Below, piece by piece: positions 2,602 to 63,952 of a stretch of 64,000 nt of DNA. Every line of letters begins with the position of its first letter. Positions within the stretch are counted from its first letter, which is position 1. A program made the position numbers and the translations under genes. The notes below the pieces were generated by a model. That model made no database searches. It was not told the DNA's origin and saw only the letters and a list, made by a program, of their open reading frames with translations. Origin of the DNA: SAR202 cluster bacterium (GTDB taxonomy: Bacteria > Chloroflexota > Dehalococcoidia > Lucifugimonadales > Australimonadaceae); assembly GCA_016872415.1 (NCBI GenBank), contig VGZX01000003.1, forward strand, positions 3,118 through 67,117, given 5' to 3'.

Positions 2602-3549
2602 ATGCGCGTGTTGGTGGCTGGAGCGACCGGGTTCATCGGTGGCGCGTTGTGCGCCGAGCTGGTGGCCGCCGGCCATGAGGTCGTGGTGCTCTCGCGCGAC
2701 GCCGCATCGGCACGGGCAAGGCTGCCCATGGTCGCCGGCGCGTTCGCGTGGCCTTCCCCCACGGCGGCGGCGCCGCCGCCGGACGCATTCGACGGTGTCG
2801 ATGGCGTCGTCAATCTCGCCGGCGAGCCCGTGAGCGGCCGGTGGACCGATGGGAAGAAGCGCCGCATTCACGACTCGCGGGCGCTGGGCACGCGGCATCT
2901 CGTGCAGGCGATGGGGGGCTTTGCCCGCCGCCCGCGCGTGCTCGTCAACGGCAGCGCGGTGGGGTATTACGGCAACCGGGGCGACGAGGAGCTCACCGAG
3001 GCGAGCCCGCCGGGCGAGGACTTCTTGGCCGGCGTGTGCAGGGACTGGGAGGCCGAGGCGCGCCGGGCGGAGGAGCTTGGCATGCGTGTCGTGCGGTCGC
3101 GCACGGGCCTGGTGCTCGGCAGCGACGGCGGGATGTTACGGCCCATGCTGCCGCTGTTCCGCTTCGGCCTCGGGGGGCCGCTGGGTGACGGCAACCAGTG
3201 GTGGCCGTGGGTGCATCGGCGCGACGTGGTGGGCATGGTGAGGCTGGCCTTAGAGGACGACCGGATCGCGGGCCCGCTGAACGCGACCGCGCCCAACCCG
3301 GTGCGCCAGGGTGTGTTCGCGAAGACGATGGGACGCGTGCTGGGCCGGCCCGCGCTCGTGCCCGTGCCGGCATTCGCGCTGCGGCTGGTGTTGGGCGAGT
3401 TCTCGGCGGAAGTATTGAACAGCAAGCGGGTGCTGCCGAGGGCGGCGTCGCGCGCCGGCTATCGGTTCCACTTCGCCGACCTCGAAACGGCCCTCCGCGA
3501 CGCGCTGCGAAAGCCAGCGCGCGTCACCTCCTCGGCGGCGCCCCCGTAG
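2602..3549 (+). CDS. TIGR01777-family NAD-dependent epimerase/oxidoreductase
   Basis: GGAGG RBS; N-terminal MRVLVAGATGFIG Rossmann motif; VNLAGEP, SAVGYYG, W(P)WVH..D, GPLNATAPNPV motifs. Confidence 0.9.
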   Translation: MRVLVAGATGFIGGALCAELVAAGHEVVVLSRDAASARARLPMVAGAFAWPSPTAAAPPPDAFDGVDGVVNLAGEPVSGRWTDGKKRRIHDSRALGTRHLVQAMGGFARRPRVLVNGSAVGYYGNRGDEELTEASPPGEDFLAGVCRDWEAEARRAEELGMRVVRSRTGLVLGSDGGMLRPMLPLFRFGLGGPLGDGNQWWPWVHRRDVVGMVRLALEDDRIAGPLNATAPNPVRQGVFAKTMGRVLGRPALVPVPAFALRLVLGEFSAEVLNSKRVLPRAASRAGYRFHFADLETALRDALRKPARVTSSAAPP

Positions 3550-48976: not shown

Positions 48977-49351
48977 ATGGTGAAGGTCGCCGCGTTCCGC
49001 TCATGGAATTTCAACGCCCGGGACATCGACGCGACCGTGCGCTTCTACCAGGACGTGCTGGGGGCCGACGTGAGCATGGAGCATACGATCGGCGGCGCGC
49101 GCGTGGTCCGCATGCGCGTCGGTGGTGTCGGCCTCGGCGTGTTCGACGCCACAGATGGCCCGCGCCCTGGTGTGCCGCACCACACCTTCGCGGTCGAAGG
49201 GCCGGCCGATTCGCGCGAGCTCGTGGACGAGATCGAGGCCAAGGGCTTCAAGGTCGAAAGCGTGCGCGAGCACCGGGGCGGCGCCGGCTATTCCGTCTAC
49301 GTGTCCGACCCCGCCGGCAACCGGGTCGAGCTATCCGTGGGCGAGGGGTAG
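48977..49351 (+). CDS. VOC/glyoxalase family protein
   Basis: RDIDATVRFYQDVLG, HHTFAV, YVSDPAGNRVEL. Confidence 0.85.
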   Translation: MVKVAAFRSWNFNARDIDATVRFYQDVLGADVSMEHTIGGARVVRMRVGGVGLGVFDATDGPRPGVPHHTFAVEGPADSRELVDEIEAKGFKVESVREHRGGAGYSVYVSDPAGNRVELSVGEG

Positions 49352-49434
49352 GCGCTCGCCCGCCCGCTCCCCGGCGGCGCGAGGGACGCCGTCGCCTTCA
49401 CCGTCTCGGCGCGCCCTGCTATCATCGCCGCACC

Positions 49435-51111
49435 ATGCTAATTCGAGACATCATTGCCCAGCGGCTGGCCGAGGCGGTGGAAGAGGCGCAACGCCAAGCC
49501 ATTCTGCCGTCGGCCGCGATGCCGGTCGTTCCGATCGAGCGCCCGGTGAACCCAGAGCATGGCGACTTCGCGTCCAGCCTGCCGCTGCGCCTCGCGCGCG
49601 TCGCACGCATGGCACCCCTGGAGATCGCGAACCGCCTTCAGCCGCTGGTGAAGACCGACGGCGTGATCGAGGCGGTGGAGGTCGCGCCCCCCGGTTTCCT
49701 CAACTTCCGGGTCACGTCGCGCTGGCTGCAGCAGCAGGCGGTGGACGCGGTGAAGGCGGGCGCGGCCTACGGCAACACGGACACTGGCAAGGGCAAGCGC
49801 GTGCAGGTCGAGTTCGTGAGCGTGAACCCCACCGGCCCCGTGCACGTGGGCCATGCCCGAGGCGCCGTGCTCGGCAGCGCGCTGGCGAATGCGCTGGCGG
49901 CCGCGGGGTTCGAGGTCACGCGCGAGTATTACATCAACGATGCGGGCACGCAGATGCGGCTCTTCGCCGAGTCGCTGTACGTCCGCTACGCGCAGGCCGC
50001 CGGAAGCGACGAACAGCTGCCCGAGGGGGGCTATCGCGGCGCCTATGTCACCGAGCTTGGGCAAGAGCTGGCGCGGCGGCATGGCGATCAGTTCCTGCGG
50101 ATGGACCGCGCCGCCGCCGTCAGCGAGATGCTGCGTATCGGCCTCGACTACATGATCGCCAACATCCGCGATGACCTGGCGAGCGTTGGCGTGCGGTTTG
50201 ACGTCTGGTTCAGCGAGCGATCGCTGTTCGACAGCAAACAGGTCGATGCGGCGATGCGGATGCTGCGCGACCGCGGCTACACCGCCGAGCGCGAAGGCGC
50301 GTTGTGGTTCACGTCGTCGCTGCTCGGCGAAGACAAGGACAACGTGCTGGTGCGCGGCACGGGCCAGCCGACCTACTTCGCCTCCGACATCGCCTACCAC
50401 TACAACAAGTTCGCGGCGCGCCAGTTCGACCGCGTCATCGATATTTGGGGGGCCGACCACCAGGGCCACGTGCCCCGCATGAAGGCGGTGGTGGGCGCGC
50501 TCGGCATCGACCCCGACCGTCTCACCATCATCATCTCGCAGCTCGTGACGTTGAAGCGCGGCGGCGAGGTGGTGCGCGCCTCGAAGCGCACGGGCGAGCT
50601 GGTCACCCTGCGCGAGCTGGTGGACGAGGTGGGCGCCGACGCCTGCCGCTTCTTCTTCCTTGCCCGCTCGGCCGAGGCGCAGATGGAGTTCGACCTGGAG
50701 CTGGCGAAAAAGCAGTCGGCCGAGAACCCAGTCTACTATGTGCAATACGCGCACGCGCGCATCGCGGGCATTCTGCGGCAGGCGGCCGAGCGCGGCGTGA
50801 CGTGGGCCGACGGCGACGTGTCGCTGCTGACGCACGAGGCGGAGTTGGCCCTGCTGCGCAAGATGGCGATGTTGCCCGAGATCGTCGACGGCATCGCGGT
50901 GACACTTGGCCCCCAGGCGCTGCCGCACTACGCGCTGGAGCTCGCCAACGCCTTCCACTGGTTCTATGACCACTGCCGCGTGCTGCCCAGCGACGACGGC
51001 AGCCTGCCGCTGGCGGTCACGAAGGCCCGCCTGCGGCTGTGCGAAGCCAGCAAGACCGTGCTCGCGCGCACGCTCGACCTCATGGGCATGAGCACGCCCG
51101 AGAAGATGTAG
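49435..51111 (+). CDS. argS: Arginyl-tRNA synthetase
   Basis: HGDFAS, PGFLNF, EFVSVNPTGPVHVGHARGA (HIGH-like), YFASDIAYH, WGADH, YVQYAHAR. Confidence 0.98.
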   Translation: MLIRDIIAQRLAEAVEEAQRQAILPSAAMPVVPIERPVNPEHGDFASSLPLRLARVARMAPLEIANRLQPLVKTDGVIEAVEVAPPGFLNFRVTSRWLQQQAVDAVKAGAAYGNTDTGKGKRVQVEFVSVNPTGPVHVGHARGAVLGSALANALAAAGFEVTREYYINDAGTQMRLFAESLYVRYAQAAGSDEQLPEGGYRGAYVTELGQELARRHGDQFLRMDRAAAVSEMLRIGLDYMIANIRDDLASVGVRFDVWFSERSLFDSKQVDAAMRMLRDRGYTAEREGALWFTSSLLGEDKDNVLVRGTGQPTYFASDIAYHYNKFAARQFDRVIDIWGADHQGHVPRMKAVVGALGIDPDRLTIIISQLVTLKRGGEVVRASKRTGELVTLRELVDEVGADACRFFFLARSAEAQMEFDLELAKKQSAENPVYYVQYAHARIAGILRQAAERGVTWADGDVSLLTHEAELALLRKMAMLPEIVDGIAVTLGPQALPHYALELANAFHWFYDHCRVLPSDDGSLPLAVTKARLRLCEASKTVLARTLDLMGMSTPEKM

Positions 51112-51188
51112 TCCCCGCCGCCCTCGCCTCGGCCAGCGCGGTCACGCGCCTCTGGCCCATCGCCCGCGTGTCCGTTAGGCTAACGCGC

Positions 51189-53720
51189 GTGACGACGCAA
51201 GCCCAACCCGACCGCCTGCGGGCCCTCCGGCGCATCCTGGCGCTGGAAGCCGACAACGGCTTCGCGAACAGGGCAGTGACGGGCGGGATCGACCGGTTCC
51301 TCCAAACGCTGGCCCGCGGCGCCGCCGACAACTTGGAGGTGCACCGCCTCGCCGCTGAGGGGCTGCTGTCGGCCGACTACGCCGCCCTGACGGCGGCTCA
51401 ACGCGAGCGCTGGGTGGAACGGGTACGGCACGTTATCGGCGACCCACCCTCGCCAACGCCGGCCGCCAAGCCGCCCGCGCCCGCGAAAACGAGTGCCGCG
51501 CCCGGTGGCGTTCCAACGCCGCCTGCACCGCCACCGGCGCCGGAAGTCGGCGACCCGGTCACGTCGCTGCGCTCGGTCACGAACCCCACCGCCGAAAAGC
51601 TGGTGAAGCTCGGCATACGCACCGTCCGCGACCTGCTGTACCACTTCCCCAACCGGCACTTGGATTACAGCCAGCGGCGGACCGTGGCGGCGCTGGAGAT
51701 CGACAGGGACCAGACCGTCGTCGTGACGCTGTGGGGCGCGCAAGAAACGCGCCTCGGCCGCGGCGGCCGCATCCGCGCGACGGAGGCCGACGTCGGCGAC
51801 GAAACGGGCAACATGCGCGTGCTGTGGTGGGGCAATCCTTGGCTGGCGCAGCAGTTCAAGCGGGCGGCCGAACGGCCGGCCGGCGCGCCGGTGCGGTTGG
51901 CGCTCGCGGGCACGGTGACGGCGTTCCAGGGCAAGAAGCGCATGGAGTCGCCGGAGTGGGATATCCTCGACGACGTTGAGACCGCCCGGCTCGTGAACAC
52001 CGGCCGCCTGCTGCCCGTGTACCCGCTGACCGAGGGCGTGCCGCAGCGCACCATGCGCCGCATCGTCCGCGATGCGCTCGACGGCGTGTTCGGCCCGGAG
52101 GGAAGGCGTCGCCCGGACCATTTGCCCGACCACATGTCGCCCGCCGACCGGCAACGGCTGTCGCTGCCGTCGTTGGGCGAGGCGGTGCTGCATCTCCACT
52201 ATCCGCCGTCGCTCGATGCTTTCGAGCGCGCGCGGCAGCGGTTGGCGTTCGACGAGCTGCTCGTGCTGCAGCTGGCGATGGCGACGCGGCGACAGGTGGC
52301 GCAGACGGCCAGTGGCATACCGTTGCGCCCCAATCCGGAGGTCGTGCGAGCGTTCGTCGAGACGCTGCCCTTCAACCTCACGGAGGGCCAGCGCAAGGCC
52401 ATGGCCGAGGCCAGCCGCGACATGGAGACGGCGGAGCGGCCCATGAGCCGGCTGCTCCAGGGCGATGTCGGCAGCGGCAAGACGGTGGTCGCGGTGGCAT
52501 TGCTGCTGACCGCCGTGGCGGACGGCTACCAGGGCGCGCTGATGGCGCCAACCGAGGTGTTGGCCGAGCAACACTTCATCAACGTCGAGCGGTTGTTGAG
52601 CGGCCTCAGCCAGCCCGCTCACCACAGTCACTGGTTCTCCGTGTACGTCGACGGCCACCCGAAGCCGGTGAGCGTGGGCCTGCTCACGGGCAGCACGCCA
52701 GCAAAGGCGCGGCGCGAACTGCAGGCGCGCGCGGCCGATGGCACCCTCGACATCCTGATCGGCACGCACGCGCTCATTCAGGGCGACGTGGAGATACCGC
52801 GCCTGGCGTTGGCCGTGGTCGACGAGCAGCACCGTTTCGGCGTGCTGCAGCGGGCGGCCCTGCGGCAGCGTGGCGCGCTTGGCGTGGGCGAGCCGCACCT
52901 GCTGGTGATGTCGGCGACGCCGATTCCGCGGACGCTGGCCCTGACGCTCTATGGCGACCTGGACGTGTCGGTGATGCCGGAGTTGCCGGCGGGCCGCCAG
53001 GCGATCATGACGCGGATCGTGGAGCCGGGCCAGCGCGACCGCGCGGAGCGGTTCGTGGTCGAGCAGGTGTCGCAAGGCCGCCAGGCGTTCATCGTGTGCC
53101 CGCTGATCGAGGAGTCGGAGGCGGTGCAGGCGCGCGCCGCGACGGAAGAGTACGAGCGGTTGCGGACGACGTCGCTGCGGGATGTGCGGGTGGGCCTGCT
53201 GCACGGCCGCATGCCAATCGCCGAGAAGCAGTCGGTGATGGATGCGTTCCGCGCGCGCGCGATCGACGTGCTCGTGGCGACGCCGGTGATCGAGGTGGGC
53301 ATCGACGTGCCGAACGCGACGGTCATGCTCATTGAGGGCGGCGACCGCTTCGGCCTGTCGCAGATGCACCAGCTGCGTGGGCGGGTGGGGCGCGGCGCGC
53401 ACCAAAGCTACTGCTTCCTGCTGACCGACTCGGATTCATTCGAGGCGCGCGAGCGGCTCCAGGTGTTGGTGCGGAGCGCTAACGGCTTCGAGATCGCCGA
53501 GGCCGATCTGCGGCTGCGTGGCCCGGGCGACTTCTTCGGGACGCGGCAGTCGGGCCTGCCGACGCTGCGCGTGGCGAAGTTGTCCGACCGCGACATTCTG
53601 GAGCGGGCCCGCGAGGAGGCCAGGCAGATCGTCGCGCGCGACCCATCGCTGCGGCGGCAGCCGGCGCTTGCCGCGGCGGTCGAGCGCTACATTGAGACGG
53701 CCGCCGACGAAGTGAGCTAG
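51189..53720 (+). CDS. recG: ATP-dependent DNA helicase RecG
   Basis: RLLQGDVGSGKT, MAPTEVLAEQH, VDEQHRFG, MSATPIPRTLAL, QLRGRVGRG, DLRLRGPG; start estimated at GTG 51189. Confidence 0.97.
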   Translation: MTTQAQPDRLRALRRILALEADNGFANRAVTGGIDRFLQTLARGAADNLEVHRLAAEGLLSADYAALTAAQRERWVERVRHVIGDPPSPTPAAKPPAPAKTSAAPGGVPTPPAPPPAPEVGDPVTSLRSVTNPTAEKLVKLGIRTVRDLLYHFPNRHLDYSQRRTVAALEIDRDQTVVVTLWGAQETRLGRGGRIRATEADVGDETGNMRVLWWGNPWLAQQFKRAAERPAGAPVRLALAGTVTAFQGKKRMESPEWDILDDVETARLVNTGRLLPVYPLTEGVPQRTMRRIVRDALDGVFGPEGRRRPDHLPDHMSPADRQRLSLPSLGEAVLHLHYPPSLDAFERARQRLAFDELLVLQLAMATRRQVAQTASGIPLRPNPEVVRAFVETLPFNLTEGQRKAMAEASRDMETAERPMSRLLQGDVGSGKTVVAVALLLTAVADGYQGALMAPTEVLAEQHFINVERLLSGLSQPAHHSHWFSVYVDGHPKPVSVGLLTGSTPAKARRELQARAADGTLDILIGTHALIQGDVEIPRLALAVVDEQHRFGVLQRAALRQRGALGVGEPHLLVMSATPIPRTLALTLYGDLDVSVMPELPAGRQAIMTRIVEPGQRDRAERFVVEQVSQGRQAFIVCPLIEESEAVQARAATEEYERLRTTSLRDVRVGLLHGRMPIAEKQSVMDAFRARAIDVLVATPVIEVGIDVPNATVMLIEGGDRFGLSQMHQLRGRVGRGAHQSYCFLLTDSDSFEARERLQVLVRSANGFEIAEADLRLRGPGDFFGTRQSGLPTLRVAKLSDRDILERAREEARQIVARDPSLRRQPALAAAVERYIETAADEVS

Positions 53721-53746: not shown

Positions 53747-53797
53747 CGATGCCATTTGCGACGCACGACACGCGGTCGCTATCATGATCGAGGCGCC

Positions 53798-53887
53798 GGA
53801 GGGATGGCAGAGCGGACGATTGCGACAGTCTTGAAAACTGTTGTAGCCGCAAGGCTACCGTGGGTTCGAATCCCACTCCCTCCGCCA
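53798..53887 (+). tRNA. tRNA-Ser(UGA)
   Basis: GGAGGGATGGCAGAGCGG...ACAGTCTTGAAAACTGT...long variable arm...GGTTCGAATCCCACTCCCTCCGCCA; 90 nt. Confidence 0.97.
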
Positions 53888-53928
53888 ACCGCTTAGGGTT
53901 CGAGCCGTCACCTTCCCCGCGAGTCGAT

Positions 53929-55197
53929 GTGCAACAGATACAACCCGCCCGCTCGTCGCGTGTCTACTACGGATGGGTCATCGTCGGCGTCACCTTCGTC
54001 GGCGGGTTCTTCACCAGCGTCGGCAGCGTGTGGGCCATCGGCCAGTTCGCGCAGCCGATGGGAAGCGATCTCGGCTGGACGCGATCGCAGATATTCCTGG
54101 CCCTCACCATCCGCACCTTGCTCAGCGCCGTCGCCGGCCCGCTGCTCGAACCGTTCCTCGACCGCCGCAATGGCGCGCGCTATATCTCGCTGCTCAGCGC
54201 CGCCGCCATGGGCGTCTCCTTCCTGGGCATCCGCTGGGTCGACGCCGTGTGGCAGTTCTACCTGCTGTTCGGCGTGCTCGGCGCGCTCACGCAAGCCGGC
54301 TCGGGCTACGTGGTCGCCATCACGACGATCCCGAAGTGGTTCGTGCGTAACCGCAGCCGCGCGCTGGGCGTGGCGCTCATGGGCACGGGGTTCGGGGCCT
54401 ATGGCGTGTTCCCCGTGCAGGCCGCCATCTCCGGCCTGGGCTGGCGCGATGCGTGGTTCGCCCTCGGCATCGTCACGCTGGCGCTGCTCGTCCCCGCGAG
54501 CCTATTGCTCCGCACGCGCCCCGAGGACATGGGCCTGCTGCCCGACAACGCGAGCGCGAGCGGCGATGGCTCCCCCGCCGCCAAGGCACGCCGCCGCCCC
54601 GACGAGCGCAGCCTCACGCGCGGGCAGGCCACGCGCACGTCAGCGTTTTGGCTCGTCATGGCGGTGTTCGCGTTCGTGGGCTTCGGGCTGCCCGGCTGGC
54701 AGGCGAACTGGACATCCTTCCTCACGGACCGTGGCTACACCGCCGGCGACGCATCGGTTGCCTACCTGATGTACGGCACGTTCTCCATGCTGGCGCGCGT
54801 CGCCTGGGGCTGGCTCGGCGACCGCTTCGCCGTGGGGCATCTCCTCGTCGCGTGCACCGTGCTCACGGGAGCTTGCGTGTTGGTCATGCTGCACATCTCC
54901 GGCATGCCCGCGTTGGTCGCGTACATGGCGGCGACCGGCTTCGGCGTCGGCGGTTGGGTGCTGTTGGGACCGCTGCTGGTGGCGGACTACTTTGGGCGCG
55001 CGAACCTGGGAGCGGTCGGCAGCCTGCTGCGGCCGGCCTCCACGGTGGCGACCGCCGCGGGCCCGGTCGCCATCGCGCTGGTTTATGATGCGTCGGGCGG
55101 GTACACGTGGGCATGGATGATGGTGGCGGCCGCCTGGTTCGCGGCCGCGGCAACCGTGCTGCTCGCGCGGCCGCCCCGCCCGAACGCCGGCGCCTGA
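53929..55197 (+). CDS. MFS transporter (OFA/MCT-like)
   Basis: YYGWVIV, KWFVRNRSRALG, GWLGDRF, VADYFGRANLG; about 12 TM. Start estimated. Confidence 0.9.
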   Translation: MQQIQPARSSRVYYGWVIVGVTFVGGFFTSVGSVWAIGQFAQPMGSDLGWTRSQIFLALTIRTLLSAVAGPLLEPFLDRRNGARYISLLSAAAMGVSFLGIRWVDAVWQFYLLFGVLGALTQAGSGYVVAITTIPKWFVRNRSRALGVALMGTGFGAYGVFPVQAAISGLGWRDAWFALGIVTLALLVPASLLLRTRPEDMGLLPDNASASGDGSPAAKARRRPDERSLTRGQATRTSAFWLVMAVFAFVGFGLPGWQANWTSFLTDRGYTAGDASVAYLMYGTFSMLARVAWGWLGDRFAVGHLLVACTVLTGACVLVMLHISGMPALVAYMAATGFGVGGWVLLGPLLVADYFGRANLGAVGSLLRPASTVATAAGPVAIALVYDASGGYTWAWMMVAAAWFAAAATVLLARPPRPNAGA

Positions 55198-55226
55198 GCC
55201 GCGTTCGCGGCCCTACCGAGGCTCGC

Positions 55227-55796
55227 ATGCGACACGCCGGCTTCACGATCGAGACGTTCGACGCCGACGATGCCAGCGCGGTGGAGCAAGCCGCCGCCAT
55301 CTTGCACGCGGAGATTGGGCCGCCCCGCCATGCGGGCTTCGGTTCCCTCGCCGGCGCGCGGGATGAGGTGCGAGACTGTCTTGCCGACGGCCGGCACGCG
55401 TTCCTCGCGCGCGCCGCCAACGGCGACATCCTGGGGTGGGCCGGCGCGCGGCCGGAATATGACGGCCACGTGTGGGAGTTGCACCCGCTCGTCGTGCGCC
55501 GGGACGCGCAGCGACGCGGCATCGGCACGGCATTGGTCGCCGCCGTCGAATCGCTGGCCCGCGACAAGGGTGGGCTCACGCTGCTGCTCGGCGCCGACGA
55601 CGAAGACTTCCGCTCATCGCTCGGCGGCGTCGACCTTTATGATGCCCTGCCCGCGCGACTGGCAGCGGCCTCCACCGACCGCGACCACCCGATCGCGTTC
55701 TATACGCGCATCGGCTTCACCATCGTGGGCGTCATCCCCGACGCTAACGGGCGCAGGAAGCCGGACATCCTTCTCGCCAAACGGTTGCGGCCATGA
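55227..55796 (+). CDS. GNAT acetyltransferase similar to aminoglycoside 6'-N-acetyltransferases AAC(6')-Ia/Ii
   Basis: WELHPLVV, QRRGIG, LG.DDE...SSL, HP..FY..IGF.IVGVIP.ANG..KPDI motifs. Confidence 0.85.
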   Translation: MRHAGFTIETFDADDASAVEQAAAILHAEIGPPRHAGFGSLAGARDEVRDCLADGRHAFLARAANGDILGWAGARPEYDGHVWELHPLVVRRDAQRRGIGTALVAAVESLARDKGGLTLLLGADDEDFRSSLGGVDLYDALPARLAAASTDRDHPIAFYTRIGFTIVGVIPDANGRRKPDILLAKRLRP

Positions 55797-55973
55797 CCCA
55801 CCATGCCGCCGCGTTCGACCCGTTCGTAACGCTCGTGAGTGGGGCAACGTGCCCGGCGGATCCGCCGCGGAGTTGCGGGAAGGGCGTCCTCGCTCGCCCA
55901 CGCCGCGCGGGAGCCTGACCGTAAGCCATTACTTAAATTACAATGCCGCACATTGCATGCCAGGAGGCGCGCG

Positions 55974-56381
55974 ATGCCTGACTCTATCGAAGTGTCCCAG
56001 ATGATTCCCGCCACGCCGGACGAGATTTACGAGGCGTGGCTGGACGCCGACAAGCACGCGGAGATGACCGGCGGCGGCGCGACATGCGATGCCCGCGTCG
56101 GCGGCAAATTCACCGCATGGGACGACTACATCTCGGGCACCATCCTCGAGTTGGAGCCGGGCAAGCGCATCGTGCAAGCGTGGCGCACCACTGAGTTCCC
56201 CGCCCGGTCGAAAGATTCGCGCCTCGAAATCGTCCTCGAGGCGGTGAAGGGCGGCACCCGCGTCACGCTGCGGCATTCCAACATTCCCAAGGGCCAAGGC
56301 CCCAGCTACGAGCAGGGCTGGACCGACTACTATTTCGCGCCGATGCTCGAATACTTCGGCGCCGAGATCGACGTGGACTGA
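55974..56381 (+). CDS. SRPBCC/AHSA1-like protein
   Basis: ATPDEIYEAW, GGKF.AWD, IVQAWR, GTRVTLRH..IP, GW..YYF; AGGAGG RBS. Confidence 0.88.
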   Translation: MPDSIEVSQMIPATPDEIYEAWLDADKHAEMTGGGATCDARVGGKFTAWDDYISGTILELEPGKRIVQAWRTTEFPARSKDSRLEIVLEAVKGGTRVTLRHSNIPKGQGPSYEQGWTDYYFAPMLEYFGAEIDVD

Positions 56382-56484
56382 ACTCCGCTCCGTCGCCTCC
56401 AACGGGTGCCGCGCTCGCTTGCGCGCCGGCACGCAGCCGGTTTGCATGCCGTCCCTCACGACGCCCCCACCGCCCAATGCGTAA

Positions 56485-57129
56485 ATGGTAGGCGACGGGG
56501 AGTGCGTCCACGAAACAGGCGCTCCCGGTCGAGGGGGCACCTTGCTCGGCGCGTTGCGAAAGGCGGCCGCGCGGCGAACGGTGGAGTGCACCGACACCGG
56601 TGTCGCCGTCGTGCGCGTGTCCTTGTATTCCATCTGCGTCCTGCTGCTGTTGAGCCAGCGCGACGCGGTGCCCGCGTGGGACTCGTTCTACTGGCTCACC
56701 GTTGGACTCGGCCTCACCAGCATCACGCTGCTGTTCTGGGCGCGGTCGCGCGGCGCGAACGCGGCGCTGACCGTGAGCACCGGCCTCGACCTGCTGTTGC
56801 TCTTCACGGCCACGTTCGTCATCGCGTGGGGCACCGCCGGCGGCACGATGCCGGTGGGCTTCGGTGAGTTGGTGCTGGTGCTGGCCGTGCCGGTGTGCGT
56901 GCTGCACTTCGGCCCGCTCATGGGGCTCGCATCGTCGAGCGTGCTCGGCGCATGGCACTTTCTCACCCACGCGCAGATCGCCCGCCCGCAGGACAGCATG
57001 GGCATACCGCTCATCGGCGGGATGGCCGCGCTCGGCGTGGGCGCGCTCATCGCCCTCATGGTGACGGCCATGCGGCACGAGCATGCCCTCCGCGCCGAGG
57101 CGGAGTTCCAGGCCGGTTACGAGGGCTAA
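56485..57129 (+). CDS. Hypothetical multi-pass membrane protein
   Basis: Five to six hydrophobic segments; no recognised motif. Confidence 0.55.
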   Translation: MVGDGECVHETGAPGRGGTLLGALRKAAARRTVECTDTGVAVVRVSLYSICVLLLLSQRDAVPAWDSFYWLTVGLGLTSITLLFWARSRGANAALTVSTGLDLLLLFTATFVIAWGTAGGTMPVGFGELVLVLAVPVCVLHFGPLMGLASSSVLGAWHFLTHAQIARPQDSMGIPLIGGMAALGVGALIALMVTAMRHEHALRAEAEFQAGYEG

Positions 57130-58517
57130 CCGCCCGTTTCCCGCTCGGCCCGGGATGGCCGCGAGCGCCGCGCGATGAGAGCGGACGTCGGCAGCGCGAC
57201 GGCGGCGAAGAACGCCAGCATCACGCCCAACGACTGCGTGAAGGCCGCGGCGATGCCCCCCGCCAAGAACAAGCCCAGCAGCGTCGCCGCGAGCGCCCCG
57301 CCGATCGAGTTCGATCCGTGCCCGGTCAGCACGAACACCGCCGGCGCGAGGCTCAACTTCTCCGCCGGGACCGACGAGAAGATGATGCGTTGGTTCGGCG
57401 GTATGAACATGCTGAACCCGGAGCCCACGACGAACAGCGAGACGACGATGCGCCACGGCGGCGGCTCCTCGCCGAGCGTCACGAGTAGGGCGCACCCGAC
57501 GATCATCAGCACGATGGCCGCCAGCGCCGGCTTGCCCGGCCCCACGCGGTCCGCCAGGTAGCCGGAGATGGGGCCCATCACCGGTCTCCCAATGGTGAAC
57601 GCCACCAGCACCAGGCCCGCGTGCGACCCGCTCCAGCCGAGCCCCTGCACGAAGTAAAACGGCAGCAGGGTGTTGAGCGTCGCCAGCAACAGGGCGCCCG
57701 CGACTTGCCTGCCGATGGTGAGCCCGAAGATGCCACCCTTGAACAGGCCCAGGTCGATGAGCGGGCGAGGGCTGCGTCGCTCGTTGAGGATGAACGCGGC
57801 GCCCGATACGATCGCCGCGCCGAGCAGCGCGAGACCGAGCGCCCGCGTGCCGGCGGCGGCGAAGCGCTGCGCGCCCAGCGTGAGCGCGGCGAGGAATCCG
57901 CCGATGAAGACGACGCCGAGGTAGTCGAACGTGCGGAGCGAGAAGCGTTCGTTCCCGGTGGTCGACGATTCCTTCGCCACGAGGAACACGACGAGCCACA
58001 GCAGCGCGTACATGAACGCGGTGATGAGCAGCAGGTAGCGCCAGCCGAAATTGTCGGCCACCACGCCCACGACGAGCGTTTGCGCGACTTGCCCGATGCC
58101 AATGCCGATGGACATGAGGCCGAGCACCTGGCCTCGACGCTCACGGGGCCACGCGACGACCGCGAGCGGCGGGAGGTTCGACACGGTGATCGCGTTGCCG
58201 ATGCCGCCGATGGCCCGTATCGCCACCAGCATGGAGAACGACGGCGCCAGAAACAGGCCGAGCTGCGACAGCATGTCGATCGCCACGCCGAACAGCACGA
58301 GCCTGCGCCGTCCAAGCGTGTTGCCGAGGAACGCCATCGGCAACAGCATCGCCGCCGTCGTCAGCGTATAGGCGATATACATCCAGATAACGGTGGTGCG
58401 CGCGACCTCCAGGTCAGCCTGGATGAACGGCAGCAGCAGCAACATGCCGACGATGTGCATCGGCCCGGCGATATCGAAGAGCCACTGGGTCAGCAGGATC
58501 CGGGCGCGATAGGACAA
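57126..58517 (-). CDS. MFS transporter (DHA2/EmrB-like, about 14 TM)
   Basis: GNTLGRRR motif A, RAIGGIG, ERRGQVLG, FDYLG, PLIDLGLFK. Confidence 0.88.
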   Translation of the reverse strand: MSYRARILLTQWLFDIAGPMHIVGMLLLLPFIQADLEVARTTVIWMYIAYTLTTAAMLLPMAFLGNTLGRRRLVLFGVAIDMLSQLGLFLAPSFSMLVAIRAIGGIGNAITVSNLPPLAVVAWPRERRGQVLGLMSIGIGIGQVAQTLVVGVVADNFGWRYLLLITAFMYALLWLVVFLVAKESSTTGNERFSLRTFDYLGVVFIGGFLAALTLGAQRFAAAGTRALGLALLGAAIVSGAAFILNERRSPRPLIDLGLFKGGIFGLTIGRQVAGALLLATLNTLLPFYFVQGLGWSGSHAGLVLVAFTIGRPVMGPISGYLADRVGPGKPALAAIVLMIVGCALLVTLGEEPPPWRIVVSLFVVGSGFSMFIPPNQRIIFSSVPAEKLSLAPAVFVLTGHGSNSIGGALAATLLGLFLAGGIAAAFTQSLGVMLAFFAAVALPTSALIARRSRPSRAERETGG

Positions 58518-58709
58518 GGGCGCGGCACCCCTATCTCACGGCGGATAGTCAAAAAGCCGTCAAACATCGTAGCACTCTCGGCTTTCACGGCCTGCCGCCG
58601 CCCGCGGCTTTACACCCATCCACAACAGCGATACCGTCACCGGCGCGGCGCTTGCGGCGGCCGGGGCCGCGGGCCGGCTGACCGACAATCTTTCGCCAGG
58701 GCGTGTGCA

Positions 58710-59969
58710 ATGACGATGACGGCACCAGGCATCGAGCAGGCGCGGAATGTCGAACTGGTCGCCTACCATGACCTAAACGGCAGACCCGGGTTCAAGATGG
58801 CGATGCAGGTTGTCGACGGGCGGTGGTATCTGCACGTCGCGCACCTGTGGGACCCGGGTTGGGGTGTCGTGGACGTCACCGACCCACGGAGGCCCTCGGT
58901 GTCGCACTTCGAGCCGTGGCGCAAGAACACGTGGACGATTCAAGTGCAGGTGGCCGACGGCCTGATGGTGTGCGCGCTGGAGGCCATCGCCGCCGGGGCG
59001 CCCTTCGCCGAAACCGTCGCGTGGGGGTTCGAGCCATCGGGCCCTCCACATGAGGCCGGCATTTTGCTGTGGGACGTGCTGACTCCCACGGCTCCGAAAC
59101 TGGTGAGCCATTTCAACACCGGCGGCTCCGGCACGCACCGCAACTTCTACGTGGGCGGCCGTTACGCCTACCTGGCGGCCGGCGTCGAGGGGTTCGCCGG
59201 GAACATTCTCGTCATCGCGGACCTAAGCGATCGCGCGCACCCGGTCGAGGTCGGCCGTTGGTGGTTTCCCGGCCAGTGGCTGGCGGGCGGCGAGGCCGGC
59301 ACGCCGGGCGTCAGCCTGCACGGCCCGGCTTACGTCGACGACGGACTCGCGTATCTGCCCTATGGGAAGGCGGGCATGGTGATCGTGGACGTGTCCGACC
59401 CCACTCGGCCACGGTTCGTCAGCCGCGTCTCGTTCGGCGATCTCGGCGGCTTCATCGGGCTGCACACCGTGCTGCCGATACCGCGCCGCAAGCTCGCCGT
59501 CGTCAACTCCGAGGCGATTCTGGAGGATGGCCTCGACTTCGCCAACTACGCGGCGGTGGTCGACATCGCCGATGCCCGCAAACCGCGCATCATGTCGCTG
59601 TTCCCGACGCCGGCGCCGGAGCCGGGCATGCCTTACCGCAACTTCGTGGCGAAGGGCGGCAGGTTCGGCCCGCACAATCAGCACATGCCCCACCACCAGC
59701 CGCACCTGATGCCCGTCGACAACCTCGTGCACATGACCTACTTCAACGCCGGGTTGCGCGTCTACGACATCTCCGACCCTTACATGCCCACCGAGGTCGG
59801 CCATTTCGTGCCGGCGGACCCCACGGTGCGCCGAGGCCCGCTGCCCACGAAGCTGGTGACGCAATCCGAGGATGTGCTGGTCGACGCGCGCGGCTACATC
59901 TACGTGACGGACAAGAACCACGGCCTGCTCGTCCTGCGGTACGTGGGCCCGGGCGCTCCGAGCGCCTAG
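58710..59969 (+). CDS. LVIVD-repeat beta-propeller protein
   Basis: Repeated xVDVxDPxxP units (VVDVTDP, IADLSDR, IVDVSDP, VVDIADA, VYDISDP); no signal peptide. Confidence 0.85.
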   Translation: MTMTAPGIEQARNVELVAYHDLNGRPGFKMAMQVVDGRWYLHVAHLWDPGWGVVDVTDPRRPSVSHFEPWRKNTWTIQVQVADGLMVCALEAIAAGAPFAETVAWGFEPSGPPHEAGILLWDVLTPTAPKLVSHFNTGGSGTHRNFYVGGRYAYLAAGVEGFAGNILVIADLSDRAHPVEVGRWWFPGQWLAGGEAGTPGVSLHGPAYVDDGLAYLPYGKAGMVIVDVSDPTRPRFVSRVSFGDLGGFIGLHTVLPIPRRKLAVVNSEAILEDGLDFANYAAVVDIADARKPRIMSLFPTPAPEPGMPYRNFVAKGGRFGPHNQHMPHHQPHLMPVDNLVHMTYFNAGLRVYDISDPYMPTEVGHFVPADPTVRRGPLPTKLVTQSEDVLVDARGYIYVTDKNHGLLVLRYVGPGAPSA

Positions 59970-60110
59970 CGAGCCATCGCCCTGGTTCCGGCCGCGCCGT
60001 GCGTCGAGGCTCAATTTTCCGCTACATACGGCAGTCGGTGGGATGCTCTGCTATCATGCGCCAGCCCCGCGGCGCCGCCGCCGGGTCCATCCCCGATAGG
60101 AGTGAGACGG

Positions 60111-61262
60111 ATGAAGCTTCACGAATACCAGGCCAAGAAACTCTTGGCTGGCTATGGCGTGCCGATCCCGCAGGGCTCCGTCGCGAGCACGCCGGCCGAG
60201 GCGACGAAGGCGGCCGAGCAGCTCGGCGGCCGTGCCGTGGTCAAGGCGCAGGTGCACGCGGGCGGTCGCGGTAAGGCCGGCGGCGTGAAAGTGGTGTCGA
60301 GCGGCGCCGAGGCCGCCGAGGTAGCCAAACGGCTCATCGGCAGCACGCTCGTCACTTTCCAGACCGGCCCGCAAGGCGCCCCCGTACATCAGGTGCTCGT
60401 CGAGCAGACCGTCGACGTCGCGCGCGAGCTCTACCTCAGCATGACGACCGATGGTGGGCGCCGGCGCCCCGTCATCATTGCCTCGCAGGCGGGCGGCATG
60501 GAGATCGAGGAGGTGGCGAAGACCCACCCCGATCAGATCATCACCGAACCCATCGATCCGGCCATCGGGCTGTACCCGTTCCAGGTGCGCCGGGTGGCCG
60601 AGGCGTTGAACGTGACGGGCGAGGCCGCGCGTCCGTTCGCGATGCTGCTCAATGCCTGCTACAACGCGTACATGGAAAAAGACTGCTCCATGATCGAGAT
60701 CAACCCGCTCGTGATCACGAAGGACAACAAGGTGCTGGCGCTGGACGCCAAGGTCACGATCGACGATGACGCCCTCTACCGCCACAAGGCCGAGGCGGAG
60801 CTTCGCGACAAATCGCAGGAAGACCCGCTGGAAGTGCAGGCTTCGGAGCATGGCATCGCCTACGTGAAGCTCGACGGCGATGTCGGCTGCATGGTCAACG
60901 GCGCGGGCCTCGCGATGGCGACCATGGACATCGTGAAGTTCGCCGGCGCGCAGCCCGCCAACTTCCTCGACGTGGGCGGCGGCGCCAACGAGGAGAAGAT
61001 CGCGAAGGCCATCGAGCTCATGCTCTCCGACAAGAGCGTCACGCAGGTGCTCGTGAACATCTTCGGCGGCATCCTGCGGTGCGACGTCGCCGCGCGCGGC
61101 CTCATCGCCGGCATCGAGGCGGCTGGGCGTCAGCCCCGCATGGTCGTCCGCATGCTGGGCACCAACGTCGACGAGGGCAAGCAGATCCTCGCCGGCTCCG
61201 GCCTCAAGATCTCGCTCGTCAACACGCTGCAAGAGGCCGCCACGGCCATCGCGGCGAAGTAG
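60111..61262 (+). CDS. sucC: Succinate-CoA ligase (ADP-forming) beta subunit
   Basis: [62 protein letters not shown]. Confidence 0.97.
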
Positions 61263-61272
61263 GGGGAATCGG

Positions 61273-62157
61273 ATGAGCATTCTCGTCGACAAGAACACTC
61301 GCCTGCTGGTGCAGGGCATCACCGGCCGGGAGGGCAGCTTCCACGCCGAGCGGTGCATGCAATACGGCACCAACCTCGTCGCCGGCGTGACGCCGGGCAA
61401 GGGTGGCGAAAAAGTGTTCGACAAGGTGCCGGTGTTCAACTCGGTGTCCCGCGCGGTCAAGGAAACCGGCGCGAACGTATCGCTGATCTTCGTGCCGCCG
61501 CCCTTCGCCGCCGACGCGATGATCGAATCCGCCGACGCCGGCGTGCCCCTGGTCATCTGCATCACCGAGGGCGTGCCGGTGAAGGACTCGATGTACGTGA
61601 TGCGCTACCTGGAAGGCAAGCAGACAAGGCTCATCGGCCCCAACTGCCCCGGCCTCATCACGCCCGGGGCGAAGGCCAAGGTCGGCATCATGCCGGGCAA
61701 CATTCACATGCCGGGCAAGGTCGGCGTCGTCTCGCGCAGCGGCACGCTCACCTATGAAGCGGTGCAGCAGCTCACGACCCTTGGCATCGGCCAGTCGTCG
61801 TGCGTCGGCATCGGTGGCGACCCGGTGTCCGGCACCACCTTCGTGGACGTGCTGAAGCTGTTCAACGCCGACCCCGAGACCGAGGCCATCGTGCTCATCG
61901 GCGAGATCGGCGGGGTCAAGGAGCAGGAGGCCGCGGCCTACATCAAGGCGAACGTGAAGAAGCCCGTCGCCGCCCTCATCGTCGGCCAAACGGCGCCTCC
62001 GGGGCGGCGCATGGGTCACGCGGGCGCGGTCATCACCGGCACGGCGGCGCTGGCGAGCGAGAAGATGAAGGCCCTGGCGGAGGCCGGCTGCCACGTGATC
62101 CCGAGCCCGGCCGAAATCGGCTCGACCGTGCGCGCGATGCTGGCGAGCCGGAAGTAG
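61273..62157 (+). CDS. sucD: Succinate-CoA ligase alpha subunit
   Basis: [38 protein letters not shown] (phospho-His). Confidence 0.97.
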
Positions 62158-63010: not shown

Positions 63011-63451
63011 TCAGGCGCACTCCATCAACGCCTTCAGCCGGGCCAGGTCCTTCCGGTTGGCGCGCCGCATCGCCATCGCCATGAACGGCCCGGCGATCCT
63101 CGCGAACCCGCTGGGGTTGCCCCGGTTTCGCAGCGTCATCCGCGTGCGGCCCGCGCCCACGGTCTCCCAGGCATAGGCCGTCTCCATTGGGAACGGGCCT
63201 TCTTGTGTGCGCATGACGAGCCGCGACGCGGGCGCGAACTCGATCACCTCGTAGGTATAGGCCAGGCGGCGGCCGAGGAAGCGCGCGACGAAATCGAGCC
63301 GCGATCCGACGCGCAGCGGCGGCGGTGTCTTCCATTCGGCCGAGACGATGTTCACATACCACGCCGGCGCGCTGGCCGGGTCCGCGGCGAAGGCGGCCAT
63401 CTGCTCGCGCGGACGGTCGATCACGATGTCGGTCACCACGTCGACGGCCAT
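63011..63451 (-). CDS. SRPBCC (polyketide cyclase/dehydrase-like) protein
   Basis: I.RP....AAF..DP...P.WY.NI, PPL.VGS...F.A.FLG..L.YTYE, GPFPMET.Y, TLRNRG.P.GF. Confidence 0.88.
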   Translation of the reverse strand: MAVDVVTDIVIDRPREQMAAFAADPASAPAWYVNIVSAEWKTPPPLRVGSRLDFVARFLGRRLAYTYEVIEFAPASRLVMRTQEGPFPMETAYAWETVGAGRTRMTLRNRGNPSGFARIAGPFMAMAMRRANRKDLARLKALMECA

Positions 63452-63499: not shown

Positions 63500-63952
63500 C
63501 TACATGCCGGGCCGGACGTGCGGGCCGGCGTCGCCCCCCGCGCCGGCGATGACGAGCCGTGCCAGGTAGTGCTTCCAACCCATGGCGTGCAGGCCGCGTT
63601 CGTGTTCGTCAGGCAGGCCGAAGTGGCGCAGGTGGACGCGCGTGCCTTGCCCCTCGCGGCGCAGGGTGATCTCCACCGTGGTCGACCCCGGGGGCACCTT
63701 GGGGCTGCCCTGCCAGCCGAAGGAGTAGACGATGCGCGGGAACGGCGTGACCTCGATGTAGCTGCCCGCCATGACGATGCCATCGCCAAGGTCGACCGTA
63801 TACTCGCCGCCCGTGCGTGGGTCGAGACTCGCGGCGACGCCGTTCCACCGCACCATCTTGGAAGGGTCGGTGAAGAACGAAAACACGGTTTCGGGGCGCG
63901 CCGCGATCAACACGTCGCACCCGGCGATGTCATCGCTCGTCGGCGGGGTCAT
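63500..63952 (-). CDS. SRPBCC/AHSA1-like protein
   Basis: I.A.PETVF..FTDP.....W.G, DP..GG.Y, STTVEITL...G.GT.V.L.H, GW.HYL.RL. Confidence 0.88.
   Translation of the reverse strand: MTPPTSDDIAGCDVLIAARPETVFSFFTDPSKMVRWNGVAASLDPRTGGEYTVDLGDGIVMAGSYIEVTPFPRIVYSFGWQGSPKVPPGSTTVEITLRREGQGTRVHLRHFGLPDEHERGLHAMGWKHYLARLVIAGAGGDAGPHVRPGM

Follow-up and report, generated by a model that had tools for sequence, protein, structure and literature searches.

The window analysed here, a stretch of 64,000 nucleotides (nt) from the chromosome of an uncultured SAR202 cluster bacterium of the phylum Chloroflexota (GenBank assembly GCA_016872415.1, contig VGZX01000003.1, positions 3,118 to 67,117), carries at 55227-55796 of its forward strand a gene for a GNAT acetyltransferase that resembles the aminoglycoside 6'-N-acetyltransferases AAC(6')-Ii and AAC(6')-Ia. 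Profile searches, a structure model, phylogeny and a comparison of genomic contexts show that the encoded protein falls outside the resistance clades of AAC(6')-Ia and AAC(6')-Ii, in a very large and uncharacterised branch of the family that comes mostly from Chloroflexota; this explanation, taken as a whole, we consider very probably right. As a member of a large environmental branch of this kind, the gene is to be viewed as an ordinary gene and not as a proven resistance gene.

The gene and its product

Direct translation of 55227-55796 gives an uninterrupted open reading frame (ORF) of 189 codons that is closed by a TGA stop. The original prediction, made from the letters alone, had singled out a series of motifs in this frame, and all of them are indeed present in the order in which it gave them:

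55227..55796, forward strand: gene of the AAC(6')-Ii/Ia-like GNAT N-acetyltransferase (translation, Pfam, NCBIfam, PDB, AlphaFold2, Foldseek)
55213..55226, forward strand: ribosome-binding region, with GAGG at 55218-55221, 5 nt before the ATG and within the 29-nt spacer that follows the gene of an MFS transporter
Residues 83-90: WELHPLVV (direct translation, as for the following motifs)
Residues 95-100: QRRGIG
Residues 121-132: LGADDEDFRSSL
Residues 154-159: HPIAFY
Residues 166-181: IVGVIPDANGRRKPDI

The ATG at 55227 is to be preferred as the start of the gene, because the alternative GTG ORF, which begins at 55107, overlaps the upstream transporter gene (end at 55197) by 91 nt, because the GAGG precedes the ATG at a short distance, and because the homologues share this start, i.e. 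their N-termini coincide with it in the alignment. The gene is intact and is predicted to encode a small acetyltransferase that depends on acetyl-coenzyme A (acetyl-CoA).

Similarity to the named aminoglycoside acetyltransferases

Pfam sees only generic GNAT domains, with Acetyltransf_1 (PF00583) at 54.9 bits against a cut-off of 20.7 (expectation value (E) 1.3e-14). This score, which lies above the gathering threshold, together with QRRGIG as the motif A CoA loop of the form Q/R-x-x-G-x-G/A, places the protein in the GNAT superfamily. At a finer level, the best NCBIfam model is that of the AAC(6')-Ia family (NF033078), with 138.1 bits and an E of 2.9e-40, which is below the curated cut-off of 265; on the AAC(6')-Ii model (NF000165) the protein scores 130.5 bits, below the cut-off of 300, so that neither equivalog threshold is reached. 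The controls AAC(6')-Ia and AAC(6')-33 reach 331.4 and 326.1 bits on NF033078, both above its cut-off, while environmental homologues score 145-185 bits and an unnamed GNAT from a Klebsiella plasmid scores 126; among the chromosomal members of the environmental branch that were tested, the score of our protein is the lowest. The reference enzymes in these comparisons were taken from plasmid records and comprise AAC(6')-Ia, -33, -F72, AacA16/-Iaf and -Iae as well as two unnamed plasmid GNATs. When phmmer is run against the PDB, the strong matches are exclusively AAC(6')-Ii entries (E. faecium AAC(6')-Ii, 1N71, E 1.9e-29, over residues 45-189 of our protein), followed by mycothiol synthase at an E of 1e-3. 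The homology that had been proposed from the motifs is therefore genuine and full-length, and the motifs that had been ascribed to the two enzymes are correct: the real AAC(6')-Ii sequence contains WELHPLVV, LGTDD, HPYEFY and IVGVLPNANGWDKPDIW, and that of AAC(6')-Ia contains WELHPLVV, LGTDDE, HPYEFY and IVGIIPNANGKNKPDIW.

The protein shares with AAC(6')-Ii of Enterococcus faecium (PDB 1B87, 1N71, 2A4N, 5E96 and 7BXZ; NF000165) the length class, the fold and the wing at ~36% identity. WELHPLVV is identical in the two, the equivalents of Glu72, His74-Pro75, Leu76, Tyr147, D112, D113 and D168 are retained, and both are encoded by a chromosomal single-copy gene. They differ in the CoA loop (QRRGIG in our protein, the atypical RKNQIG in AAC(6')-Ii), in Phe38 as against Trp25 and in PDANGRR as against PNANGWD; moreover, the N-terminal 44 residues of our protein are left unaligned by phmmer and its host is an uncultured Chloroflexota bacterium. 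In the case of the AAC(6')-Ia family (AAC(6')-Ia, -33, -Iae, AacA16/-Iaf and -F72; NF033078) the alignment runs from end to end at 32-36% identity, and the invariant residues G70, W71, Y78, E84, P87, G98, G100, G122, D125, F158, G163, G168, P171, N174, G175, P179, D180, I181 and K185 are held in common; these enzymes are integron- and plasmid-borne, however, whereas our gene lies on no gene cassette, integron or plasmid. The closest likeness is to uncharacterised environmental GNATs from Chloroflexota and other phyla (for example P0002, P0005, P0013 from Ardenticatenales and P0079 from Thermomicrobiales), which constitute the protein's own branch: they are 46-60% identical to it over the full length and share its motifs, its length and its single-copy chromosomal setting without conserved neighbours, although our protein is among the most divergent of them and its nearest relative is 60% identical.

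Structure model and catalytic residues

A model built with AlphaFold2 from 102 homologues is very confident, with a predicted local distance difference test (pLDDT) score of 94.5 and a predicted template modelling score (pTM) of 0.90. Its best Foldseek match is again 1N71 (template modelling (TM) scores 0.88/0.92, root-mean-square deviation (rmsd) 1.6 Å over 183 columns, 36% identity, E 8e-21), and the top seven matches are all AAC(6')-Ii, with TM scores of 0.74-0.88 when normalised to the length of the query, of 0.89-0.93 when normalised to that of the target, and an rmsd of 1.6-2.3 Å; the first GNAT in the list that is not AAC(6')-Ii has a TM score of 0.65. The wing insertion, residues 117-140 of AAC(6')-Ii, was reported to be unique to that enzyme among GNATs (PMC5053276). 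A wing segment of equal length is present at ~129-152 of our protein and is gapless against AAC(6')-Ii in the phmmer alignment. As modelled, the protein has the full-length fold and the catalytic and CoA-contact residues of the AAC(6')-Ii/Ia structural type, i.e. of a wing-bearing GNAT.

The residues were mapped via the phmmer alignment to AAC(6')-Ii, and the numbering was confirmed by the residues named in PMC4964394 and PMC5053276:

Glu72 of AAC(6')-Ii = Glu84 of the present protein: catalytic
His74-Pro75 = His86-Pro87: beta-bulge
Leu76 = Leu88: backbone amide
Arg83-Gly88 = Gln95-Gly100: CoA pyrophosphate loop, canonical QRRGIG in the present protein
Tyr147 = Tyr159: CoA sulfur contact
Asp112, Asp113, Asp168 = Asp124, Asp125, Asp180: acidic residues

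For Glu72 and Leu76 of AAC(6')-Ii the roles listed are those that these residues reportedly play, and for H74/P75 and Y147 they follow PMC4964394. The acidic stretch of our protein reads Asp124-Asp125-Glu126-Asp127. Out of the 56 columns that are conserved to at least 90% (101 homologues), 50 are retained; the six deviations (L11F, F30I, W38F, R114K, T130S and G177R) are all conservative, yet they make the protein the most deviant of the 102 sequences at conserved columns (6 versus a median of 1).

The number of these deviations and the long branch on which the protein lies (see below), together with the fact that DNA of high GC content yields many spurious ORFs on both strands of the window, would fit a decaying or non-functional remnant, or an artefact of ORF calling. 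We regard such an origin as highly improbable, as the frame is full-length, uninterrupted and preceded by a ribosome-binding site, its third codon positions have a GC content of 0.83, matching that of the neighbouring genes, the invariant and catalytic residues are all retained and the model is of high confidence. The remaining ORFs listed on both strands over this stretch are without homology support and are a by-product of the ~70% GC DNA.

Position in the family tree

A careful tree was computed with IQ-TREE from 63 sequences (LG+C20+F+G4, posterior mean site frequencies (PMSF)). In it the five named Ia-family enzymes form a clade (support 96/93) within a wider clade (100/98), AAC(6')-Ii forms a clade as well (98/97), and our protein lies outside all of them; it is grouped with P0002, a protein from a metagenome (100/99), among uncharacterised environmental sequences. 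By the approximately unbiased (AU) test, a position of this pair within the five named Ia enzymes is rejected (p = 0.006). The part of the original prediction that saw in the gene a possible reservoir member of the Ia/Ii resistance family is thus not supported in that form: the scores are about half the NCBIfam cut-offs, the protein is outside both clades, and the homologue search returns as best matches uncharacterised environmental GNATs of 50-60% identity from outside the AAC(6')-I clade, an outcome that the prediction had itself named as speaking against membership.

A first quick tree of 124 rows was set aside because the constrained search gave a better tree than the free one, which made its AU test uninformative. 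A quick tree that includes the named loci joins our protein and P0002 to the copies of two relatives from the same family (G013 and G026) with a support of 91 in the Shimodaira-Hasegawa-like approximate likelihood ratio test (SH-aLRT), all on long branches, and suggests that the gene would be an old, fast-evolving resident with many losses and not a recent import.

A number of observations weigh against an assignment of the protein to the environmental branch as an enzyme of the AAC(6')-Ii type. In the AU test neither a sister relationship of the protein to the wider Ia clade (p = 0.20) nor one to the Ii clade (p = 0.36) is rejected, the family tree has a comb-like backbone, and the branch that leads to our protein is long (0.71 for the stem shared with P0002 and 0.57 for its own end branch). 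With respect to the substrate, the near-invariant Trp38, Thr130 and Gly177 are replaced and the confidence of the model is at its lowest over residues 31-40 (pLDDT ~70), from which it follows that the substrate preference may differ both from that of the named enzymes and from that of the protein's own clade. In addition, no characterised member of the environmental branch was found in the literature searched, and the searches made found no structure of AAC(6')-Ii with a bound aminoglycoside.

Distribution of the family

In a collection of 5.8 billion proteins 3,884 homologues were found at E <= 1e-5, of which the best is only 60% and most are ~50% identical to our protein; many of them already bear the automatic Joint Genome Institute (JGI) label 'aminoglycoside 6'-N-acetyltransferase I'. 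When the proteins are clustered at 50% identity, 387 clusters match at E <= 1e-10. Two motif patterns match at least 584 species genomes; among the matches listed Chloroflexota dominate (Anaerolineae, Chloroflexia, Dehalococcoidia and Ktedonobacteria), accompanied by Cyanobacteriota, Poribacteria, Acidobacteriota, Gemmatimonadota, Bacillota, Deinococcota and others. Predicted aminoglycoside-modifying enzymes had already been reported as ubiquitous in environmental phyla, including Chloroflexi (Lund et al. 2023, PMC10400643). Compared at the sequence level, our protein is best described as a rather divergent new sequence in a known and very populous family.

The gene is far from general at the level of genomes. 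The host assembly (2.0 Mb, 93% complete) has one copy, and copies are present in 7 of 61 genomes (the host's own and those of 60 relatives from its family or order), covering 4 of 42 genera; the copies of the relatives in this sample are at most 51% identical to our protein. Among genomes sampled across the phylum, 35 of 401 (~9%) have the gene, always as a single copy and chiefly in a small number of families whose genomes are larger. It is therefore a patchily retained accessory gene and not a core gene. The suggestion that it might be an ancestral housekeeping acetyltransferase survives these counts as far as a cellular role is concerned, but not in the sense of a gene that belongs to the core.

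Two further observations concern the family at large. Some of its representatives (P0124, P0144, P0146, P0182 and P0195) are 340-530 amino acids long, and P0124 has three matched stretches, from which it would appear that tandem-duplicated or fused forms of the AAC(6')-like GNAT exist. Furthermore, an uncharacterised family GNAT, WP_070085966.1 (locus L002, NZ_AP022205.1, coding sequence 2920-3459), is encoded beside an IS91 transposase on a plasmid of the IncQ2 group, and identical matches are found on other Klebsiella and Citrobacter plasmids, several of which apparently stem from one wastewater survey. This protein is 44.8% identical to ours, scores 126 bits on NF033078 (cut-off 265) and was labelled aac(6')-I by some depositors; it is a mobilised family member from outside the named clades.

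Genomic neighbourhood

The surroundings of the gene in the window are as follows:

49003-51111: argS (first-start ORF)
51039-53720: recG (first-start ORF)
53798-53887, forward strand: tRNA-Ser with anticodon UGA (ARAGORN), the upstream edge of a variable segment, 1.3 kb upstream of the acetyltransferase gene
~53929-55197, forward strand: MFS transporter of the oxalate/formate-monocarboxylate (SfMCT-like) type (Pfam MFS_1, NCBIfam, PDB)
55977-56381: AHSA1/SRPBCC protein
56485-57129: unassigned membrane ORF
57126-58517, minus strand: DHA2/EmrB-like MFS transporter, 1.3 kb downstream of the acetyltransferase gene
58746-59969: LVIVD-repeat protein
60102-62157: sucC-sucD
53888..60101: lineage-variable segment from tRNA-Ser to sucC, six genes in 6.2 kb (comparison with relatives)

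The upstream transporter scores 149 bits on the SfMCT model and 102 bits on the OFA family model of NCBIfam, both below the cut-off, and matches the lactate transporter 6G9X in the PDB (1.3e-18). Its naive start, GTG 53860, runs through the tRNA-Ser gene, so that its start, though uncertain, is probably GTG 53929. A promoter scan gave promoter-like sites at 53756-53785, before tRNA-Ser, and at 55915-55944, before the AHSA1 gene, and none in the 29-nt spacer between the MFS and acetyltransferase genes, for which reason these two genes would probably form one transcription unit. We considered this arrangement as a clue to the function and dropped it, since the transporter is not a drug pump, has 24 paralogues and is not conserved as a partner of the gene. 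The paralogues (E <= 1e-30, in a host genome of 2.0 Mb) are part of an expansion of lactate/oxalate-formate-type MFS transporters that is striking in the lineage; most genomes in the host's family have 6-25 of them.

Conservation of genomic context, in the end, tells little about the function of the gene. In none of the 80 named loci does a homologue of a window neighbour occur within 6 kb of the GNAT homologue, and in a clustering of the neighbours the largest recurring family is found in only 6 of the 80 loci. The copies of the same family sit amid Rieske, SDR and HAD genes and the gene of P0002 comes after Fe-S assembly and GCV_T-like genes on its contig, in both cases without pairing with an MFS gene.

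Comparison with relatives shows that the stretch from tRNA-Ser to sucC, 6.2 kb long in our genome, is a lineage-variable segment: in one (G010, locus L120) sucC-sucD follow the tRNA-Ser after ~0.7 kb, in a second (G004, L119) the tRNA-Ser is followed by an AHSA1 orthologue (65% identical) without MFS or GNAT gene, and in a third (G013, L115) the distance from the same tRNA-Ser to an AAC-like copy downstream of it is 4.2 kb. The GC content of the segment (0.65-0.74) is like that of its flanks, no integrase or transposase gene occurs within ~10 kb of the GNAT gene, and no distal att-like repeat of the 3' end of the tRNA-Ser was found for the segment; an 11-mer that recurs at 59025 does not belong to a longer repeat. 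The gene therefore does not have the marks of a mobile resistance gene, and a genomic island at the tRNA-Ser was rejected for want of an integrase, a distal repeat and a deviating GC content; only the term variable segment can be claimed. The earlier statement that no mobile element is adjacent accordingly holds with respect to integrases and transposases over ~10 kb, yet it had passed over the nearby tRNA-Ser and the variable segment that begins there.

Some observations on the surroundings are given for completeness. A degenerate copy of the 3' end of the tRNA-Ser (GGGTTCGAGCCGTCACCTTCCCCGCGA) is found 8 nt past the tRNA (window 53798-53922) and may be an old integration scar or due to chance. 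The first-start ORFs of argS and recG overlap by 73 nt, and in a relative the region that matches recG begins near residue 51; the true start of recG probably lies downstream of 51039. Three genes of the SRPBCC superfamily are present within 8 kb, two of the AHSA1 type (55977-56381 and 63500-63952) and one of the Polyketide_cyc2 type (63011-63451).

Proposed mechanism and physiological role

By homology with AAC(6')-Ii, the protein is very probably an active N-acetyltransferase of the same type that acts on a cationic amine, and it is probably dimeric. In the AAC(6')-Ii reaction acetyl-CoA binds before the amine acceptor, which then attacks directly within a ternary complex (PMC4964394). In our protein the pyrophosphate of CoA would be seated on the loop Gln95-Arg-Arg-Gly-Ile-Gly100, the beta-bulge of His86-Pro87 would offer the backbone amide of Leu88 to the thioester carbonyl, and Tyr159 would touch the CoA sulfur. 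A positively charged primary amine would be positioned by Glu84 and the invariant acidic residues Asp124, Asp125 and Asp180, and would then attack the acetyl group directly in the ternary complex. Since the characterised relatives acetylate the 6'-amino group of aminoglycosides, our protein may well acetylate aminoglycosides too; as to whether it would do so measurably in vitro, we put the chances at about even.

Such an activity could be the selected function of the gene, i.e. a working aminoglycoside 6'-N-acetyltransferase (EC 2.3.1.82) that protects its host against the aminoglycosides of neighbours, in which case the gene would be a genuine resistance gene of the environment and might serve as a reservoir. 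The protein retains the complete set of catalytic and acidic-pocket residues found in AAC(6')-Ii and AAC(6')-Ia, 24 of 28 predicted new aminoglycoside-modifying enzymes raised the resistance of E. coli (Lund et al. 2023, PMC10400643), and one of the active enzymes of that study, F72, falls in the Ia clade of the careful tree; in addition, an uncharacterised family member from outside the clades has already reached IS91-flanked plasmids of Klebsiella and Citrobacter, and the gene of a DHA2-type efflux transporter is near, downstream of ours. Nevertheless, we consider this role unlikely. The protein scores far under the curated equivalog cut-offs, the enzymes tested in PMC10400643 were chosen above model thresholds, come from pathogens and lie outside its branch, and a context of the resistance type is lacking, the co-oriented MFS transporter being of the monocarboxylate/oxalate-formate type and no neighbour being conserved. 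Furthermore, the acidic pocket is invariant over thousands of genomes and many phyla, for which a common cellular substrate is a better fit than defence against a single class of antibiotics, and the substrates of AAC(6')-Ii itself go beyond aminoglycosides to histones and small basic proteins, as reported in PMC4964394.

The latter observations lead to the view that the natural acceptor is a cellular amine other than an antibiotic, for instance a polyamine, an amino sugar, or the lysines or N-termini of basic proteins, and that any activity on aminoglycosides is incidental promiscuity. We find this plausible, though a little short of an even chance. It agrees with a gene that is chromosomal, single-copy and of native GC content, with the breadth of the family in Chloroflexota, Cyanobacteriota, Poribacteria, Acidobacteriota and Bacillota and the strong conservation of the pocket residues, with the activity of AAC(6')-Ii on proteins, and with neighbours that are metabolic and varied (GCV_T-like and Fe-S genes; SDR, HAD hydrolase and Rieske genes; MFS). 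No conserved neighbour indicates a particular substrate, however, and the presence of the gene in 7 of 61 genomes and ~9% of the phylum sample argues against an essential housekeeping role; this patchiness speaks against an essential role whether the function is resistance or cellular.

A combined possibility, which we hold to be rather improbable, is that the branch has a conserved non-antibiotic cationic substrate and is the pool from which AAC(6')-Ii and the integron-borne AAC(6')-Ia were drawn, while the sub-lineage of our protein has shifted to another acceptor. This sub-lineage would consist of our protein, P0002 and the long-branch copies of the same family, with Trp38Phe, Thr130Ser and Gly177Arg.

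Implications

The case shows that environmental genomes commonly encode proteins with the motifs of a clinical resistance enzyme, and that such a likeness does not by itself make a resistance gene; it is the curated cut-offs and the phylogeny that set the AAC(6')-I enzymes with a name apart from our protein. If our protein or others of its branch do acetylate aminoglycosides efficiently, this would add to the very large latent pool of modifying enzymes that has been documented (Lund et al. 2023). If, on the other hand, its natural substrate is a different one, the branch would help to explain what role chromosomal enzymes of the AAC(6')-Ii type had before antibiotics came into use, which is an old and moderately pressing question.

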